25,144 nt of DNA from contig CAZSKP010000056.1 in assembly GCA_964607485.1 (NCBI GenBank), forward strand, positions 1-25,144. The letters are read 5' to 3'. The translations under genes and the position numbers were made by a program. Under the pieces are notes generated by a model, which saw nothing but the letters and a program-made list of their open reading frames with translations, was not told where the DNA came from and did not search any database. The first letter of the stretch is position 1. Each line of letters opens with the position of its first letter. Of the stretch, positions 7,294 through 24,838 are shown in pieces. The stretch comes from an uncultured bacterium. GTDB taxonomy: Bacteria; Abyssobacteria; SURF-5.

Positions 7294-7356
7294 ACCGACT
7301 GATTTGATTGGTCTGCCCGAATGCGGAAGCTGGCGGGACCCAAGAGGAGAGTGTCG

Positions 7357-10300
7357 ATGACGCAAGCACATGAGAACCTGGGCGACATGCTCGTGGAAGA
7401 AGGCGTCTTATCACGGGATGAACTCGAAGAGGTGCTCGAAAAATCCAAGGAACGCAACCTTCCCCTTGAGGAAACTCTTTTCAAGCTCGGCTACGTCTCC
7501 CGCGACAGGTTGGGAGCCATCCTGGCGAAACTCTATCAGTGCGACTTCATAGACCTGTATTCGTGCCGCGTCAACGACGAGGCCCTCAGCGCGATTCCCC
7601 CCGAGGTGGCATCGAGGCTGCGCGCACTGCCATATGCGCTCGAGGGAGAAACGCTCGTGGTCGCGCTCGCAGGAATCTTTGAGGACAGGCCGCTTCAGGA
7701 AATCGCGACCGAGCTCGAACGAGCCTCGGGAAAGAAGGTCCGCCTGACGTTCTGCAATCCCGACCCGTTGAAGGAACTGCTCCAGAGGTTCTACAAGGAG
7801 CAGACCGAGGCCGCGCACCTCCCCCGCGAAGGGCTGGGGTCGATAGTCGCCTCGATTAAGCCCGAAGAGGCGGGCGCGGGCCTTCGCGGACAATTCGAGG
7901 AACTCTACGACGTCGGCCAGACCGCACTGATAGGGGCGCGCTCGCACCCGTTCAGCCGGGCGGTGGCGGCCTCCATAGAGGAAGCGAGGGCGAAGCTGGC
8001 CGATTCGAAAAAATACGCCGAGTCGGGATTCGAGGAAGAGGCGGCCGAGATGGCTACGCAGGCCATCACGCTGCTCAAAGAGGCGACGACGAAAGCCGAC
8101 TCCGTGGAGAAGGATTGGGAAAAGCTCGTGCAGCAGGTGAAGAGTCTCCGCGCCAAGATAGTCGCGCTCGAGGAAGAGGGAGCGGCGCAGTATGCTTCCT
8201 CGGAATTCAGGGAACTCGCGGAAATACGCGACGCGCTCCTCGAGTGCGTCAACGAGCGGAACGTTGACAGGCTCCGCTCGCTGCTCGACCAGGGCATGAT
8301 TATCACGGAGAAGGTGGGCCTGCTGTCGCCCGATAGGAACCGGGGCCGCGAGCAGGTCATCGCAAGCCTGGCGCAGGTTCGAGAGGTGATAGCGCGCGCC
8401 CGAAAGGTCGGCGCGAAGGACCACGCGCCCGACGTGCTGAAGGAAGCCTACGACTTCCTCGACAAAGCCGAGGCCTGCGCCCGTCGCGCGCACTGGGACG
8501 AGGTTCGCGACTGCCTCTTCTCCGCCGAGGCGAAGGCCGTCGAGGCCGAGGGCATCGCCCTTCAGGCTCTCGAAAGAGAGAAGCAACTGACGGTCGAATT
8601 GCGAGAGGCGGTCCGCGACGCCACCGCCGTTCTTGAACAGGCCATGGCGCACTCTTTCGCGCAGGAGGTGATTGGAGACCTCATGCGCGCCAAGGACATG
8701 ATAAGCGAGGCCAAGAGCTGTTTCGAGACGGGCGGGCACGAGAGAGGCATCGGCCTTGCGCAGGATGCCGCCAGGCGTATCAGGGAGGAGATAATCCCGG
8801 GCGCCGACGACGCCGAGCGAGCCTGGAACGAGCTGTTTCGAAGGGCCGACGAGGTTTCGGCGCACGTTCAATCGATAGACATACCGCTCGCTATGAAAGT
8901 CGCTTCCGAAAAAATGGAACACCTCTTTCAGAACGAACGCAACATGGTAAGCTCTCTTTGCGGAAGAGATCGGGACAAGCTCGCCGACGCGATCTCAGCG
9001 TGCGAGGGCCTGATTCGAGAAATCAACGACTGCATCGACCCGGTGAGGGAAGGCATGCACCGGGCCGAGGGCGCAATTGCGAACGCGAGCGGCCTGCTGG
9101 CCGAGGCGGCTGCCTCGGGCGTTGACGAGAAGGTCGCGCCCGCCTATGAAGAGGCACGCCGGCTGCTGGAAGAGGCGAGGCACTTTGTCGGCGAGGGAAA
9201 CGCCGATGGCGCCATGAACAGCGCCGAGGCCGCGCGAGCCAAGCTCCAGGCAGAGGTGATCGAACGCCAGAAGTCGGCCCGGGAAAGATGGCTCGAGCTG
9301 ATTCCACGGTCGACGGAACTTTTCAAGAGGGTCGATCAGGCGTGTTCTCCCGACGCAGTCCACTACTGCCCCGAGCTTGTCCACACCCTCGAGGCTCACG
9401 CCGCCGACATGTTCTTCGCGCTCGCGGCGCGTGACCCGGAAAAAATGGAGGCGTGCATCGCGCCCATCGAAGAGACGATGCGCTCCGTCGCAGCGGCCAT
9501 CGAGGCGGCGAGATCGGAGCTTCACAGGAATATCTCCCAACAACTTGCCGAGATCGAGGAGGCCGTGCAGAAGGCAGTCCGCACGTGCTCGGGCAGCTAT
9601 GCGCCCGATATGCTCGAGGGCGCATACCTCGACTTGAACCGAATGAAAGAACAGGTAGCAGCCGGGCCGGAGGCGTTGGACGCCGCCCTGGAAAGCAGCC
9701 TGATGCGCGACCTCGCCGTCGCCCGGACCAAGGTGTGGCAGGTCGAGTTCTTGCGCGAAAGGTTCGAGCGCGAACGGCAGGAGGACCTGGAACAGCTTAG
9801 GCTGAAGATGACGGCGGCGCGGGAGGAAATCGACGAGTGCGCAAAACTCGATTTTATCGGCGAAGCCTCTCCGCTGGTGCAGCAGGCGCGCAGCCTGCTC
9901 GATCAGGCGGACAATCTGCTGATGGAAGGAGACATCGAGGGCAGCTTCGAGCTGGTGCGGCAGAGCCGCGCTACGCCCGAGCAGATGCTGGCCGAGGCCG
10001 AGAAGAAGGAACAACGCTGGAAAGAGCTGGCCGAGTCGCTCTCCGCCGAGGGAGCGTCGCACCGGACGGTCCTTGCCGACCCGGCGTCAGAAAGAATCGC
10101 CGAGGAAGAATATCGAACGCTCTCCGTGCTCGCCGCTCAGACTCAATCGATGATAGACGCCAAGGACGTCGAAGCTCTTGAACGACACGCCCAGACGCTG
10201 AGCCGGTTGTCCGACGACATCGTCGGGCGCGTCGAGACATCCAGAGAGAGGTCGCGGGCGAACATCGAAACGAAGATGCGGGACGCAAGACAGGAGATTC

Positions 10301-10641
10301 GACTTGCGGAACTGCTGAAGGCGGATGATTTCTGTCCGGACGTAATTAACGCCGCGCGAGCGTTCATCGACGTCGCGCAACGATATGCCGACAGCGAAGA
10401 TTTTGCACGGGCCGATTCCGCCGTCCGCGACGCGGCCGCAAAAGCGCGCGACGCCGGCACCCTGGCGCAGGCCGGTCTGGAACGAGCGGGCAGTCTCGCG
10501 CTCGATTACATGAAAATCGCGTCGGCCCACATCACACAGCAACAGCCCGAGGCCGCAACGCAGGCGCTGGCCCGCGGCCTGGCCCTCGCCGAGCTCGCCC
10601 GCGCCTCACGCGAATCGCGCGAGCCCGCACAACCCGACTGA
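7357..10641 (+). CDS. Large protein with an N-terminal MshEN/T2SSE_N-like domain and alpha-helical repeats, no ATPase domain
   Basis: NLGDMLVEEGVLSRDELEEVL...LEETLFKLGYVS...IPPEVASRLRALPY...LVVAL resembles PilB/GspE N-termini. The remainder is A/E/R/L-rich and helical. ATG 7357 follows GAGGAG. Confidence 0.8.
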   Translation: MTQAHENLGDMLVEEGVLSRDELEEVLEKSKERNLPLEETLFKLGYVSRDRLGAILAKLYQCDFIDLYSCRVNDEALSAIPPEVASRLRALPYALEGETLVVALAGIFEDRPLQEIATELERASGKKVRLTFCNPDPLKELLQRFYKEQTEAAHLPREGLGSIVASIKPEEAGAGLRGQFEELYDVGQTALIGARSHPFSRAVAASIEEARAKLADSKKYAESGFEEEAAEMATQAITLLKEATTKADSVEKDWEKLVQQVKSLRAKIVALEEEGAAQYASSEFRELAEIRDALLECVNERNVDRLRSLLDQGMIITEKVGLLSPDRNRGREQVIASLAQVREVIARARKVGAKDHAPDVLKEAYDFLDKAEACARRAHWDEVRDCLFSAEAKAVEAEGIALQALEREKQLTVELREAVRDATAVLEQAMAHSFAQEVIGDLMRAKDMISEAKSCFETGGHERGIGLAQDAARRIREEIIPGADDAERAWNELFRRADEVSAHVQSIDIPLAMKVASEKMEHLFQNERNMVSSLCGRDRDKLADAISACEGLIREINDCIDPVREGMHRAEGAIANASGLLAEAAASGVDEKVAPAYEEARRLLEEARHFVGEGNADGAMNSAEAARAKLQAEVIERQKSARERWLELIPRSTELFKRVDQACSPDAVHYCPELVHTLEAHAADMFFALAARDPEKMEACIAPIEETMRSVAAAIEAARSELHRNISQQLAEIEEAVQKAVRTCSGSYAPDMLEGAYLDLNRMKEQVAAGPEALDAALESSLMRDLAVARTKVWQVEFLRERFERERQEDLEQLRLKMTAAREEIDECAKLDFIGEASPLVQQARSLLDQADNLLMEGDIEGSFELVRQSRATPEQMLAEAEKKEQRWKELAESLSAEGASHRTVLADPASERIAEEEYRTLSVLAAQTQSMIDAKDVEALERHAQTLSRLSDDIVGRVETSRERSRANIETKMRDARQEIRLAELLKADDFCPDVINAARAFIDVAQRYADSEDFARADSAVRDAAAKARDAGTLAQAGLERAGSLALDYMKIASAHITQQQPEAATQALARGLALAELARASRESREPAQPD

Positions 10642-10672
10642 GTTGAGTTTCATCTGAAAGCGCAAAATCCGC

Positions 10673-10690
10673 TGTAGGGGCGCAGCATTG
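10673..10690 (+). repeat. Truncated GTAG REP-like element (left arm only)
   Basis: TGTAGGGGCGCAGCATTG with no matching right arm. Confidence 0.45.
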
Positions 10691-10697
10691 TCCGTGA

Positions 10698-11726
10698 CTA
10701 TTGAGGCAGTCTTGGCAGGTTTTTTCGCTTGAGTGGATCAGGTGCAGATGTATGTGTTCTTCTAATGCGGCGAGGACTCTTCTGGTGTTTGTCTACACTC
10801 GAACCGACAATTCTTCGAGAGAGAGAGCGTGCCTCGTCGACAGTTCCAAACAATCGATTGTCTCTCCGCTCAGCGTTTAGGAGCTCGTGAGCACGAAGGG
10901 AACTCAATGTCTTATGTCCAACGAGTTCTTGAATATTGTGTATATCCAATCCTTCATCAAGTAAGTGTTGTATTAAGCTCTTTTGCAGGGTCTTTGGGTT
11001 TATGGAGCATGCGGGCCATGCTTTTCGGGCATGCCTAGTTACAATCCGATGAATATCTCGTGTTTGTAGTGGATGTCCGTTGCCACTTAAGAACAGCGTT
11101 TTTCCTGAATGATGTCTCAACAAAACGTCCCGCTTCACAATGTATTCGCCAATTGCCCGTACAGTCATTAGGTTTAGTGGAAGAATGCGTTCGCGATCGT
11201 CCTTTCCGACTATTTTCAGTGTTTTCGTATTTAGGTCTACGTCATCAATTCCAATCCGTACAAGTTCATCCACCTTAATTCCAGTGTAATACAGCACAAC
11301 CATAATTGTTCTGTCGCGGATTCCACTGTCCTCATTGATGGGCAGGTTTAGCAGTTCTTCGATTTCTTCTCTCAAGAGGAATGTCTGTGGTTTCCAAGGC
11401 TCAGCATAGGGATGTGAAACCTCAAGCGCAGGATTGCTGTCCAATTCACCCTCATACTGGAAGAACCGAAAAAAGCTTCTGCATGCGCTGAGTCTCCTGC
11501 GAACGGTGTGCTTGTCCGAGTTACCGCTAAGTTGATATTCAAGGAAATCCTCTATCATGGGGCTGCTGACCTCACCGAGGGGGATGGATTTGGCCGGATA
11601 ACTGGGGAAAAAGCGATCTACCAAGAAATTCAGAAACTGTTTTATGTCGGTCACGTAGGCTCGTGTTGTTCTACTATCATAGTTGCTGATGTTCAAATAA
11701 TGCTGAAAGCGCTTGAGATGGCTCAT
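10698..11726 (-). CDS. XerC/XerD-like tyrosine recombinase homolog with degenerate catalytic residues
   Basis: N-terminal SAM-like region (TTRAYVTDIKQF, RRLSACRSFFRF, NPA), IRDRTIMVVLYYTGIKVDEL, GKDDRERILP, IQELVGH. Start is either ATG 11726 or TTG 11741. Low GC. Confidence 0.85.
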   Translation of the reverse strand: MSHLKRFQHYLNISNYDSRTTRAYVTDIKQFLNFLVDRFFPSYPAKSIPLGEVSSPMIEDFLEYQLSGNSDKHTVRRRLSACRSFFRFFQYEGELDSNPALEVSHPYAEPWKPQTFLLREEIEELLNLPINEDSGIRDRTIMVVLYYTGIKVDELVRIGIDDVDLNTKTLKIVGKDDRERILPLNLMTVRAIGEYIVKRDVLLRHHSGKTLFLSGNGHPLQTRDIHRIVTRHARKAWPACSINPKTLQKSLIQHLLDEGLDIHNIQELVGHKTLSSLRAHELLNAERRDNRLFGTVDEARSLSRRIVGSSVDKHQKSPRRIRRTHTSAPDPLKRKNLPRLPQ

Positions 11727-11771
11727 TTGAGACCTTGACAAAGCCTTAATAGTATTTGCTTGTTTTGAGAA

Positions 11772-11800
11772 ATCCTATCCCAAGAAATGAGGGAAGTCAA
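11772..11800 (-). promoter_or_regulatory. Possible sigma70 promoter for the xer-like gene
   Basis: Minus strand TTGACT-17 nt-TAGGAT. Confidence 0.5.
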
Positions 11801-11921
11801 GGGAGGATTAAGCGATAACGCCCGCCCCTCCGCGAAAAGTGCACTCGTGTATCTTTACCAAAGCCCTGGCCACATTTATCTGGATACTGTGACGCATAAA
11901 CTCGTGAGGTTGAAGAAAGAT

Positions 11922-11951
11922 TGTAGGGACGGTTCGCGAACCGCCCCTACA
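11922..11951. repeat. GTAG-family REP-like palindrome
   Basis: TGTAGGGACGGTTCGCGAACCGCCCCTACA, a near-perfect hairpin. Confidence 0.75.
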
Positions 11952-12120
11952 TTAACCGGCCTCGATTTTGCCAAAGTATTTTGGAAAGCGGCGCAACTCC
12001 GTATAACGTCACTCGCGCGACGATTTCAATTACCGCTTTCGGCCTTCGGGACGGGCGGTGTGTTCCTTTCTGGGGCTGCTTTGGTAAGTTCTTGGCAAGG
12101 CAGCAATCCTGTATTCATCT

Positions 12121-12876
12121 TCAATCGCGGACGCAGCGGAAGCCTACATTGTTGCCCCACTTGGTGGGGACGCCGCTTAGCCGGGACGCCGACCCTCTGA
12201 AGAAGCCACTGCTGACCCACGAGCCGCCGCGCATAATCCGGTATTCGCCCTCGGAGGGACCCTGCGGATTGTCTGTAGGACTATGCTTGTAATAGTCTCC
12301 ACCGTACCAGTCCTGACACCATTCGAACACGTTGCCGTGCATGTCGTACAGGCCCCACGCGTTCGGGGCAAAGCTGCCGACCGGCGCCGCTGTGTCCCAC
12401 CGATCTTTTCCGTCGGTGCCCGCAAAGTTGGCGTCGTCCTCGCTTATGATGTCGCCGACGTTATACTTGGTCGTCGTTCCCGCCCGACATGCGTATTCCC
12501 ACTCAGCCTCCGTCGGCAACCGCTTCCTCGCCCATTTGGCATAGTCGACGGCTTCATACCAACTTATTCCTACAACAGGATAATCATCACCCGGCGAGCA
12601 CCTGGACACCCACTCGGGAAGAGGACGCCAATAGCGGGTCGCTCGAAGAAACCTTTTGTATTCCCCAACCGTCACCTCGTATTTGTCCATATAAAAGGAA
12701 TCCACATATACCCGGTGCTGAGGATGCTGATCGGGAGCGCCCTCTCCCGGAGGGCTGCCCATGATGAATTCACCCGCGGGAATACGCACCATGCCCTTCG
12801 TAGTCGTGCCGCAGCCGGTGAGCGGTGTCAGGAGCAGGAGCAGAATCAGAATTCGTGCGAGAACATCAGATTTCAA
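12121..12876 (-). CDS. FGE-sulfatase (SUMF1/formylglycine-generating enzyme family) domain lipoprotein
   Basis: Lipobox LTGC after a hydrophobic stretch. RLPTEAEWEYACR, NAWGLYDMHGNVFEW, RGGSW, GFRC. Confidence 0.9.
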   Translation of the reverse strand: MKSDVLARILILLLLLTPLTGCGTTTKGMVRIPAGEFIMGSPPGEGAPDQHPQHRVYVDSFYMDKYEVTVGEYKRFLRATRYWRPLPEWVSRCSPGDDYPVVGISWYEAVDYAKWARKRLPTEAEWEYACRAGTTTKYNVGDIISEDDANFAGTDGKDRWDTAAPVGSFAPNAWGLYDMHGNVFEWCQDWYGGDYYKHSPTDNPQGPSEGEYRIMRGGSWVSSGFFRGSASRLSGVPTKWGNNVGFRCVRD

Positions 12877-12912
12877 CGAAATCCTCCAGTCCCAAGCAAG
12901 GTTGACAAGACA

Positions 12913-13668
12913 CTAACTTTTCTTCTCGATTCTCCGCGAGACTTTCTTCCATGAGTTCGTGATGAGGAAGCTTTCGTCCATGTCGTCGACCATCTGGCGG
13001 AATTTCTTCATCGGGGCCGCGAACGAAAGGACGTTCTCTTTCACGAACGGCCGGGCCGAGACGTCGAACATGCCCAGGACCGCCCTCGGGTTGTCGTTCG
13101 CGCGCTCGATGAGCGGATGGCTGATGATGCTTCCGCAGCCGGAGCAGAACGGCGCGATGACGGCCTGCGGGTCGAGAGACGGGAAGTTCGCAAGCGTGAA
13201 CAGGCCCGAAATCACGTCGGGCGTTCCCAGGAAGACGACGACCTGCGGCTCTTCCTCAGCCTCTATCTTGTCCCACCGCTTGAAGACGATGTGCTTGCCC
13301 TCGGCGGGAGGAACGGGCATATCCTTCATATATTCCTCGACGAGTTCGGGCGTCTTCTTGTAGCGCTCGCCCTCCAGCTTTCCGGGGATGCCGCACGAGA
13401 GGAAGTACTTGAACTCGGGCCGGTACTCGGACGGGAAGCCGGAGTAACGCACGCCGCCGAAGCAGCCAATGGTCTCCTGAGTGAACGCGAGCGTCTTCCC
13501 CGTTCGGACGACGCCGAGCTGGCCTATCATGCACACGTGTCCTTCGACGGGCCGCAGGTGCTTGGCATATTTCTCGTCGTCCGAATAGAAGAAGACGAAC
13601 GGCAGGTCGGCCTTCTTGAAATACTTCTTCCATTTTTCGATGAACTCTTTCTTGAAGCTCTGGTCCAT
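12913..13668 (-). CDS. DUF169-like protein
   Basis: Cys pattern (VCMIGQL, GCFGG, FLSCG, EGERYKKTPE, APFCSGCGS, GMFDVSAR). ATG 13668 follows AAGGAGG. The longer ORF-track N-terminus translates a palindromic repeat. Confidence 0.72.
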   Translation of the reverse strand: MDQSFKKEFIEKWKKYFKKADLPFVFFYSDDEKYAKHLRPVEGHVCMIGQLGVVRTGKTLAFTQETIGCFGGVRYSGFPSEYRPEFKYFLSCGIPGKLEGERYKKTPELVEEYMKDMPVPPAEGKHIVFKRWDKIEAEEEPQVVVFLGTPDVISGLFTLANFPSLDPQAVIAPFCSGCGSIISHPLIERANDNPRAVLGMFDVSARPFVKENVLSFAAPMKKFRQMVDDMDESFLITNSWKKVSRRIEKKS

Positions 13669-13735
13669 GACGCCCTCCTTCTTACACTTCGGGGACAATC
13701 CCCGCCGCGTCACTAGTCTGTGGCGTTTATTCCAG

Positions 13736-13798
13736 GTCATTCCCAACTTGATTGGGAATCTATCTGCCATTCTGGATTCCCGCTTTCGCGGGAATGAC
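13736..13798. repeat. GTCATTCCC...GGGAATGAC palindromic element (RPE/dRS3-like)
   Basis: Terminal inverted repeat enclosing two ATTCCC-N8/9-GGGAAT hairpins. Confidence 0.75.
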
Positions 13799-13844
13799 AA
13801 GGAGCAAGAACTAGACAAAGACCAAGAACTAATTTTACATTGCG

Positions 13845-18747: not shown

Positions 18748-18775
18748 TGTCACCATAATCTATCTTATGACGAAT
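18748..18775. other. dif-like (Xer) recombination site candidate
   Basis: TGTCACCATAA-TCTATC-TTATGACGAAT, an 11-6-11 layout with the CATAA-N6-TTATG core. Confidence 0.4.
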
Positions 18776-24760: not shown

Positions 24761-24838
24761 TGGCAGGCCTGGAGGGACTCGAACCCCCATCATCCGGTTT
24801 TGGAGACCGGCGCTCTAACCAATTAGAGCTACAGGCCT
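24761..24838 (-). tRNA. tRNA-Trp (CCA)
   Basis: Cloverleaf AGGCCTG...CCGGT-CTCCAAA-ACCGG...TTCGAGT...CAGGCCTG-CCA, with encoded CCA end. Confidence 0.97.

Follow-up and report, generated by a model that had tools for sequence, protein, structure and literature searches.

Can a gene for a tyrosine recombinase lose much of its active site and still be kept by its host, and if so, as what? This question is raised by an open reading frame in the genome of an uncultured bacterium of the Abyssobacteria (SURF-5), located on a 25,144-nt stretch of DNA (contig CAZSKP010000056.1, assembly GCA_964607485.1) called the window here. The frame occupies positions 10698–11741 of the reverse strand and is intact over 347 codons from a TTG start, as the original prediction, made from the letters of the sequence, had stated; its product is a XerC-derived homologue of tyrosine recombinases with a degenerate active site, hereafter the degenerate Xer. 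A second possible start, an ATG at 11726, would yield 342 aa, and it is this shorter form that is deposited in the protein database, where it occurs a single time, on one contig. Three parts can be told apart, all encoded on the reverse strand: a core-binding (SAM-like) domain of predicted helices with pLDDT mostly above 90 (residues 1–110; 11412–11741), a catalytic-domain fold (residues 111–292; 10866–11411), and a diverged C-terminal helix with a basic tail at pLDDT below 50 (residues 293–347; 10701–10865). The predicted basic tail of about 55 aa was borne out (55 aa, net charge +10); it starts at the XerC end, reaches about 35 aa beyond it and may represent read-through that followed the loss of the old stop codon.

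By its fold the degenerate Xer belongs to the tyrosine recombinase superfamily. It matched the Pfam family Phage_integrase (PF00589) with an E value of 1.4e-27 (97 bits, cut-off 27) and, in its N-terminal region, the SAM-like domains PF02899 and PF13495 above their cut-offs, and the best fold matches to the confident part of its AlphaFold2 model were XerA, XerD, IntI and other tyrosine recombinases. Among the more specific NCBIfam models, XerD gave 179 bits, about half of the cut-off of 330, and the XerC equivalog TIGR02224 gave 176.4 bits against a cut-off of 335.15; in PHROGs, matches were confined to generic integrase families. The top sequence match with a solved structure was 9i5v_14, a chain of 401 aa that was deposited under the name 'Ribosome-associated translation inhibitor RaiA' but of which the first ~280 residues align as a canonical Xer protein with R, H-x-x-R, GH and Y intact; either a Xer-RaiA fusion or a matter of naming might account for this.

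A residue alignment with XerD of E. coli (1a0p) and 21 active Xer proteins from the same and related genomes confirmed the predicted substitutions and placed all the motifs (TGIK, GKDD, KTLQK, GH and the His at the nucleophile position) where they had been read by eye. At these columns R, K, H, R, H and Y are present in all 21 comparison proteins. In the degenerate Xer, four of the seven active-site positions are replaced: Arg I by K156 in TGIK (codon 11274–11276), His II by K250 (10992–10994) and Arg II by Q253 (10983–10985) in KTLQK, where the next His is likewise a Lys (K254), and the Tyr nucleophile by H285 (10887–10889), nine residues past H276. The other three are kept, namely E159 (Glu I), K180 (the beta-hairpin Lys, in GKDD; 11202–11204) and H276 (His III, in GH; 10914–10916), all codons being on the reverse strand. 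Across the six columns that make a member of the superfamily an enzyme (here K156, K180, K250, Q253, H276 and H285), only Lys and His III are thus retained. Arg II occurs in all 147 of the nearest database homologues of 240–430 aa, and the Tyr in 145 of them. A displaced Tyr nucleophile, proposed earlier as a point to check, is ruled out, since the last Tyr is Y200 and the C-terminal 147 residues are free of Tyr.

What such replacements do to a recombinase can be gauged from Cre, in which each active-site position has been changed to all 19 alternatives (PMC2943603). In the results reported there, none of the 19 substitutions of Tyr324, Tyr324His included, was active, His289Lys (the His II to Lys change) was inactive, and the Arg I to Lys change was inactive in vitro, with loxP binding lost in only one of 134 active-site variants (PMC2943603). 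The degenerate Xer combines four changes of this kind, so no recombination would be expected from it, and DNA binding need not have gone with the chemistry. The loss of catalysis put forward in the original prediction accordingly fits both the residues replaced, nucleophile and Arg II among them, and the inactivity of the Cre equivalents, and the protein is probably inactive as a recombinase.

An AlphaFold2 model of the protein has pLDDT values above 90 over most of residues 1–280 and below 50 from residue 283 onward, that is, from the helix of the nucleophile position through the tail. The model was built from 51 sequences, and because all of these are active Xer proteins the high values are partly borrowed from them. 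The net charge of the catalytic-domain region is +1, compared with +8 in XerC, and this lower charge, together with the poorly predicted nucleophile and C-terminal helices, suggests that the DNA clamp and the contacts with a partner subunit may be impaired. A complex prediction for the degenerate Xer with XerD of the same genome returned a score of 0.00, which speaks neither for nor against binding.

The origin of the gene can be traced within its own genome (4.7 Mb, 93 contigs), where a search retrieved four matches: the degenerate Xer itself, XerC, XerD and a more distant integrase. The canonical XerC (G000:C22) is 44% identical to it and the canonical XerD 25%. The gene for the former lies between topA and hslV, so that the conserved topA-xerC-hslV context is occupied by the copy on contig C22 and the degenerate gene stands outside it. 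In a 22-row maximum-likelihood tree, the degenerate Xer grouped with the XerC proteins of its own bacterial family, inside their clade (support 98/99), as a weakly supported sister (68/51) of the XerC of the same genome, and a 43-row tree recovered the same clade (SH-aLRT 97), with the protein at its base and in no settled position within it. Its end branch is very long in both trees, with 2.83 changes per site versus 0.09–0.61 in nine orthologues in the first and 1.42 versus 0.07–0.41 in the second. Being nested in the family's XerC clade, the degenerate Xer is a copy of the lineage's own xerC, an additional and fast-evolving one besides the bacterium's canonical gene. It may have come about through duplication in place or through passage via a close relative or a mobile element; Xer genes have reportedly been taken up again and again by mobile elements (PMC8138268).

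No closer relative was found outside this genome. Eight of the nine other family genomes contain two matches each, one XerC-like (36–42% identity) and one XerD-like (about 25–29%), and the ninth contains none at the threshold used; in 60 related genomes there were XerC-like and XerD-like matches and no orthologue of the degenerate Xer. A full HMMER scan of 1.84 billion representatives retrieved nothing above 39% identity, the best match being a XerC of the family, and in a word-index search of 5.8 billion clusters the best match besides the protein itself was 33% identical. Viral contigs, plasmids (best match 32%) and metagenome contigs (best match 28%) likewise contained no orthologue, and none of the PADLOC models of defence systems matched the degenerate Xer or its two neighbours. 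Among the collections searched, the protein is therefore a singleton, from one sediment organism. Many of its strongest matches (P0027-P0033 and some 20 others) are tandem-fused Xer recombinases, proteins of 530–870 aa in which a Xer-like stretch occurs two or three times. The paralogues and the orthologous XerCs all keep R/H/R/Y. Intact residues in close homologues had been named in advance as a sign of recent decay or sequencing error; the residues are indeed intact in these proteins, which are only 36–44% identical to the degenerate Xer (BLASTP) and hence not close, so that neither recent decay nor error is indicated. At 44% protein identity, the synonymous sites between the degenerate gene and xerC are probably saturated.

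The gene lies within a lineage-specific segment of 2.2 kb (10689–12912), which consists of the degenerate Xer gene, a spacer of 380 bp and a reverse-strand gene for a 251-aa FGE-sulfatase-like lipoprotein (12121–12876; GC3 0.67; 42% identity to its closest paralogue in the genome). In the relatives G006 and G003 the segment is absent and a DUF169 gene directly follows the gene for a protein with an MshEN domain, and both flanks of the segment are syntenic with relatives. The MshEN protein of the window (7321–10641) is 1106 aa long, has the N-terminal MshEN domain as its only domain, followed by a very long Ala/Glu-rich helical remainder, and retains 51–63% identity across the family. In G003, the same gap between the MshEN and DUF169 genes harbours a different small insert (L037, 3500–3900) with an ORF between the two arms of an inverted GC-rich repeat, which marks the gap as an insertion hot spot. 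The left edge of the 2.2-kb segment cuts through a repeat: only the first 16 nt, the left half, of a second type of REP palindrome are present at 10673–10688 (forward strand), cut off 9 nt from the stop codon of the ORF. The type is present as a complete palindrome at other places in the genome and, in G006, at the corresponding intergenic position; a search of the genome with its first 14 nt gave 15 matches, the window copy included, most of them extending to full palindromes. Another element, a 30-nt REP-like palindrome or terminator-like hairpin at 11922–11951, lies between the FGE gene and the degenerate Xer gene and has near-identical copies on 15 other contigs of the genome. In metagenomes, the summed contig depth is 7-fold to 70-fold higher at 11839–12005 and 13676–13842, as would be expected of repeats that several organisms have in common.

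Past the terminator-like hairpin, the degenerate Xer gene stands alone. The plausible promoter of the original prediction exists as a sigma-70-like match, TTGACT-17-TAGGAT (9 of 12 positions, 11772–11800 of the reverse strand), upstream of the gene, although such matches are at chance level in the region (2 found, 1.5 expected from shuffled sequence). Of the sequencing runs listed as containing this DNA, none was of RNA. The 12 neighbouring ORFs that were scanned encode no transposition domain, transposase or excisionase, the flanks hold no direct or inverted repeats larger than chance-size matches, no tRNA gene adjoins (the sole one in the window is at 24761–24838), and Rfam gave no match near the gene; no hint of a partner or target was found in the neighbourhood. 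In composition, the gene is foreign to the genome (GC 0.57): by GC it falls among the lowest 1.3% of all genomic 1-kb windows, and its GC and GC3 are both 0.457, compared with GC3 of 0.73–0.85 in clearly native neighbours and 0.61–0.79 in the xerC genes of the family. The flanking intergenic DNA has a GC content of 0.49–0.52, near this GC3, and weak selection on the gene would also give such a value.

A search for homologues sharing the substitutions led, via the weak match P0009, to a large, conserved family of Xer-like proteins of about 284 aa from Anaerolineales/Anaerolineae (loci L040-L119; P0009, P0175-P0258), of which we found no printed description in the literature searched. Defined by L or M at the His III position, it comprises 83 of the 115 proteins examined. 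The Tyr is absent in 82 of the 83 (H in 46, F in 29, L in 5, and R and G in one each) and the catalytic Lys is lost in 81, with Arg I kept in 82 and Arg II in all 83. A collection limited to one genome per species yielded 211 loci of the family, with a constant setting: in all 48 loci with full flanks the family gene is followed downstream, on the same strand, by genes for a PNP_UDP_1 phosphorylase and an unknown protein of about 232 aa, and in 45 of them by genes for a GNAT protein and an unknown protein of about 609 aa. Five genomes have no better XerC/XerD-like match than the member of this family, which scores 101–137 bits there versus at most 92 for the other integrases. Like the degenerate Xer, these proteins are Xer-derived and intact, have H in place of Y and have R in place of Q two residues before the nucleophile column, and one subclade even has the SLIQHL and SLRA motifs of the degenerate Xer. 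In contrast to it, they keep Arg I and Arg II and lose Lys and His III. Common descent of the two was rejected by the AU test (lnL difference 44.3, p 0.004), so the resemblance is convergent or coincidental. Three further loci of Anaerolineae (L139, L140 and L143; genomes G062-G064) encode another degenerate integrase, with K, E, D/E/K, D, R, I and G at the active-site columns and hence devoid of Tyr, His II and His III.

Taking these observations together, we consider it most plausible, with a probability of roughly 60%, that the degenerate Xer is a non-catalytic, XerC-derived and probably DNA-binding protein that selection has kept folded. The main competing explanation holds that it is a relic without function: a copy of xerC, duplicated or carried in by a mobile element, would have been inactivated and be turning into a pseudogene, its frame still open by luck or recency. 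We regard this as possible, at about half the weight of the preferred reading, and a good part of the data is what such a relic would leave: a singleton without an orthologue in any of the collections searched, a very long branch, a GC3 near the intergenic composition in one of the GC-poorest parts of the genome, the lack of an operon partner and a tail resembling read-through beyond the ancestral stop. The pattern of divergence is nevertheless uneven rather than uniform. Relative to the divergence among the family's XerC orthologues themselves, that of the degenerate Xer is 1.5-fold in the core-binding domain and 1.8-fold in the first half of the catalytic domain, but 5.5-fold in box II and 3.5-fold in the C-terminal helix; active Xer proteins have 57 columns that hardly vary, and it keeps 33 of these, 24 of the 31 before residue 250 and 9 of the 26 after it. 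All indels relative to XerC are in frame. We also simulated unselected drift from the present xerC of the genome to the observed 43% identity, using a simple mutation model in which the present XerC stands in for the ancestor and indels and the true mutation spectrum are ignored. The sequence remained free of stops in none of 300 runs (mean 9.4 stops), and none of the 300 had replacements as conservative as those observed (mean BLOSUM62 score −0.37 in the degenerate Xer versus −0.72 ± 0.11 in the simulations). In a second simulation, at least four of the seven catalytic residues were altered before the first stop in just 11 of 3000 runs, indels not being counted. The two simulations argue against simple decay: an open frame at this divergence and early loss of the catalytic residues were almost never obtained by drift, which indicates that the frame was under selection as catalysis went. 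The concentrated loss of catalytic residues in the absence of frame decay, on which the original prediction had been built, is in this way upheld.

Two other explanations carry much less weight. That the protein is still an active recombinase or nuclease with non-canonical chemistry, employing His285 as nucleophile or the Tyr of a partner subunit, is highly improbable. It would fit the retention of Lys, His III and Glu I and the occurrence of His at the nucleophile column in 46 of the 83 members of the independent Anaerolineales family, but the Y to H change is a single transition, so its recurrence is mutationally easy. Moreover, the replacements extend to Arg I, His II and Arg II, a Tyr is missing from the entire final 147 residues, and in the Cre data neither Tyr324His nor any other substitution of the Tyr left activity (PMC2943603). 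Least probable of all, and very unlikely, is an artefact of assembly or binning by which foreign low-GC DNA was spliced into the contig. The sharp drop in GC, to 0.46 from the genomic 0.57, is what such a splice would produce; against it, an independent Logan assembly of run X1, which may be the source sample, contains a 5335-nt contig that spans 9000–13132 with zero differences, and two further samples of the same study contain short exact pieces of the gene (11563–11861 and 10881–11073) at low depth. The synteny of the flanks on either side, the position of the protein within the XerC clade of its own family and the presence of a native REP element inside the 2.2-kb segment also speak against a splice.

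If the degenerate Xer is a DNA-binding protein kept by selection, its history and mode of action might be pictured as follows. It is a third Xer-type protein of this bacterium, derived from the XerC lineage of its family, that would have lost recombination while selection preserved the fold. It came to its present place within the 2.2-kb insertion, which is specific to the lineage and sits in an intergenic hot spot rich in REP elements, after a period of fast evolution that would also have lowered its GC3. Binding to DNA would most likely be mediated by the core-binding domain together with the front half of the catalytic fold, perhaps aided by the basic tail, and the protein would act without cutting, as a site-specific DNA-binding or DNA-bending factor that regulates genes or modulates Xer sites. 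The data show where the gene came from, its substitutions, the insertion and an open frame for which drift does not account; the loss of catalysis is what we infer by analogy with the Cre variants, and the same goes for binding to DNA and for a regulatory function of any sort, though without that analogy. As for the putative roles originally suggested, those of a repressor, a competitor at Xer/dif or an anti-integration factor, the genomic context favours none over the others.

A search for candidate Xer sites did not reveal a convincing dif site in the genome. Compared with the 28-mer of E. coli dif, no site in the genome was within 8 mismatches, and at 9 mismatches there were 7 sites, one of them in the window (18748–18775). 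This site, about 7 kb from the degenerate Xer gene, matches 19 of the 28 dif positions and has a dif-like palindromic core (CATAA, 6 nt, TTATG). It is at chance level, because six other sites in the genome match dif equally well. The palindromic core pattern occurs twice genome-wide with about 1.7 occurrences expected by chance (a hand estimate from base composition). A bolder proposal, which we consider unlikely, is that Xer proteins with His in place of Tyr form a recurrent, functional class of non-cutting, site-specific DNA binders, of which the degenerate Xer would be a young member that docks onto the XerC half of dif-like sites or pairs with XerD and so blocks or redirects Xer recombination. 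If this were true, the protein could serve, for example, as immunity against elements that integrate via XerCD, and the Y to H and Q to R changes, which arose separately here and in the widespread Anaerolineales family, would amount to convergence on an active site that grips phosphate non-covalently.

Catalytically dead recombinases put to a new use are a kind already on record, and the degenerate Xer is a new, independently arisen case. It shares with XerC the two-domain architecture, the fold and, from the N-terminal domain to midway through the catalytic domain, the family-specific motifs, and differs from it in the degenerate box II and C-terminal helix, the 35-aa basic extension and the atypical GC3. 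A close parallel is the 'XerD' of streptococci and lactococci (YnbA), which, as described, lacks two of the R-H-R-Y residues and the extreme C-terminus, does not recombine at difSL and leaves XerS unaffected (PMC1914069). Like the degenerate Xer, it is annotated as a Xer protein and retained in genomes despite an incomplete tetrad (PMC1914069); unlike it, YnbA is conserved across streptococci and is said to be closer to phage integrases (PMC1914069), whereas the degenerate Xer is a singleton of separate origin that has lost another set of residues. The corresponding model for the streptococcal XerD-like/YnbA proteins, NF002685, gave a partial match of 24.7 bits, far below its cut-off of 178. 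TnsF of Tn6022-like Tn7 transposons is described as an inactivated recombinase that serves as a target selector (PMC10293859). Zinc fingers at its N terminus and a location among Tn7 genes (TnsABC/TniQ) set TnsF apart from the degenerate Xer; no zinc-finger family was detected by Pfam in the degenerate Xer, and none of its 12 neighbouring ORFs encodes a transposition domain. Finally, genes for tyrosine recombinases have been domesticated by eukaryotic hosts from Cryptons, according to the published account (PMC3212892), but these are eukaryotic and transposon-derived and have no sequence kinship with the degenerate Xer.

As a singleton from one sediment organism, the degenerate Xer has limited wider importance. 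A more general lesson is that an annotation as XerC, XerD or integrase does not always denote a recombinase, and the Anaerolineales family carries this lesson more strongly. For the bacterium itself, the gene is a clean natural case in which an essential housekeeping recombinase gene was copied, lost its chemistry and has still been kept, and the presence of the parent gene, xerC, in the same genome makes a direct comparison of the two possible. If the degenerate Xer binds Xer sites without cutting them, chromosome dimer resolution, or integration by elements that exploit XerCD, would have in it a natural dominant-negative or modulator.
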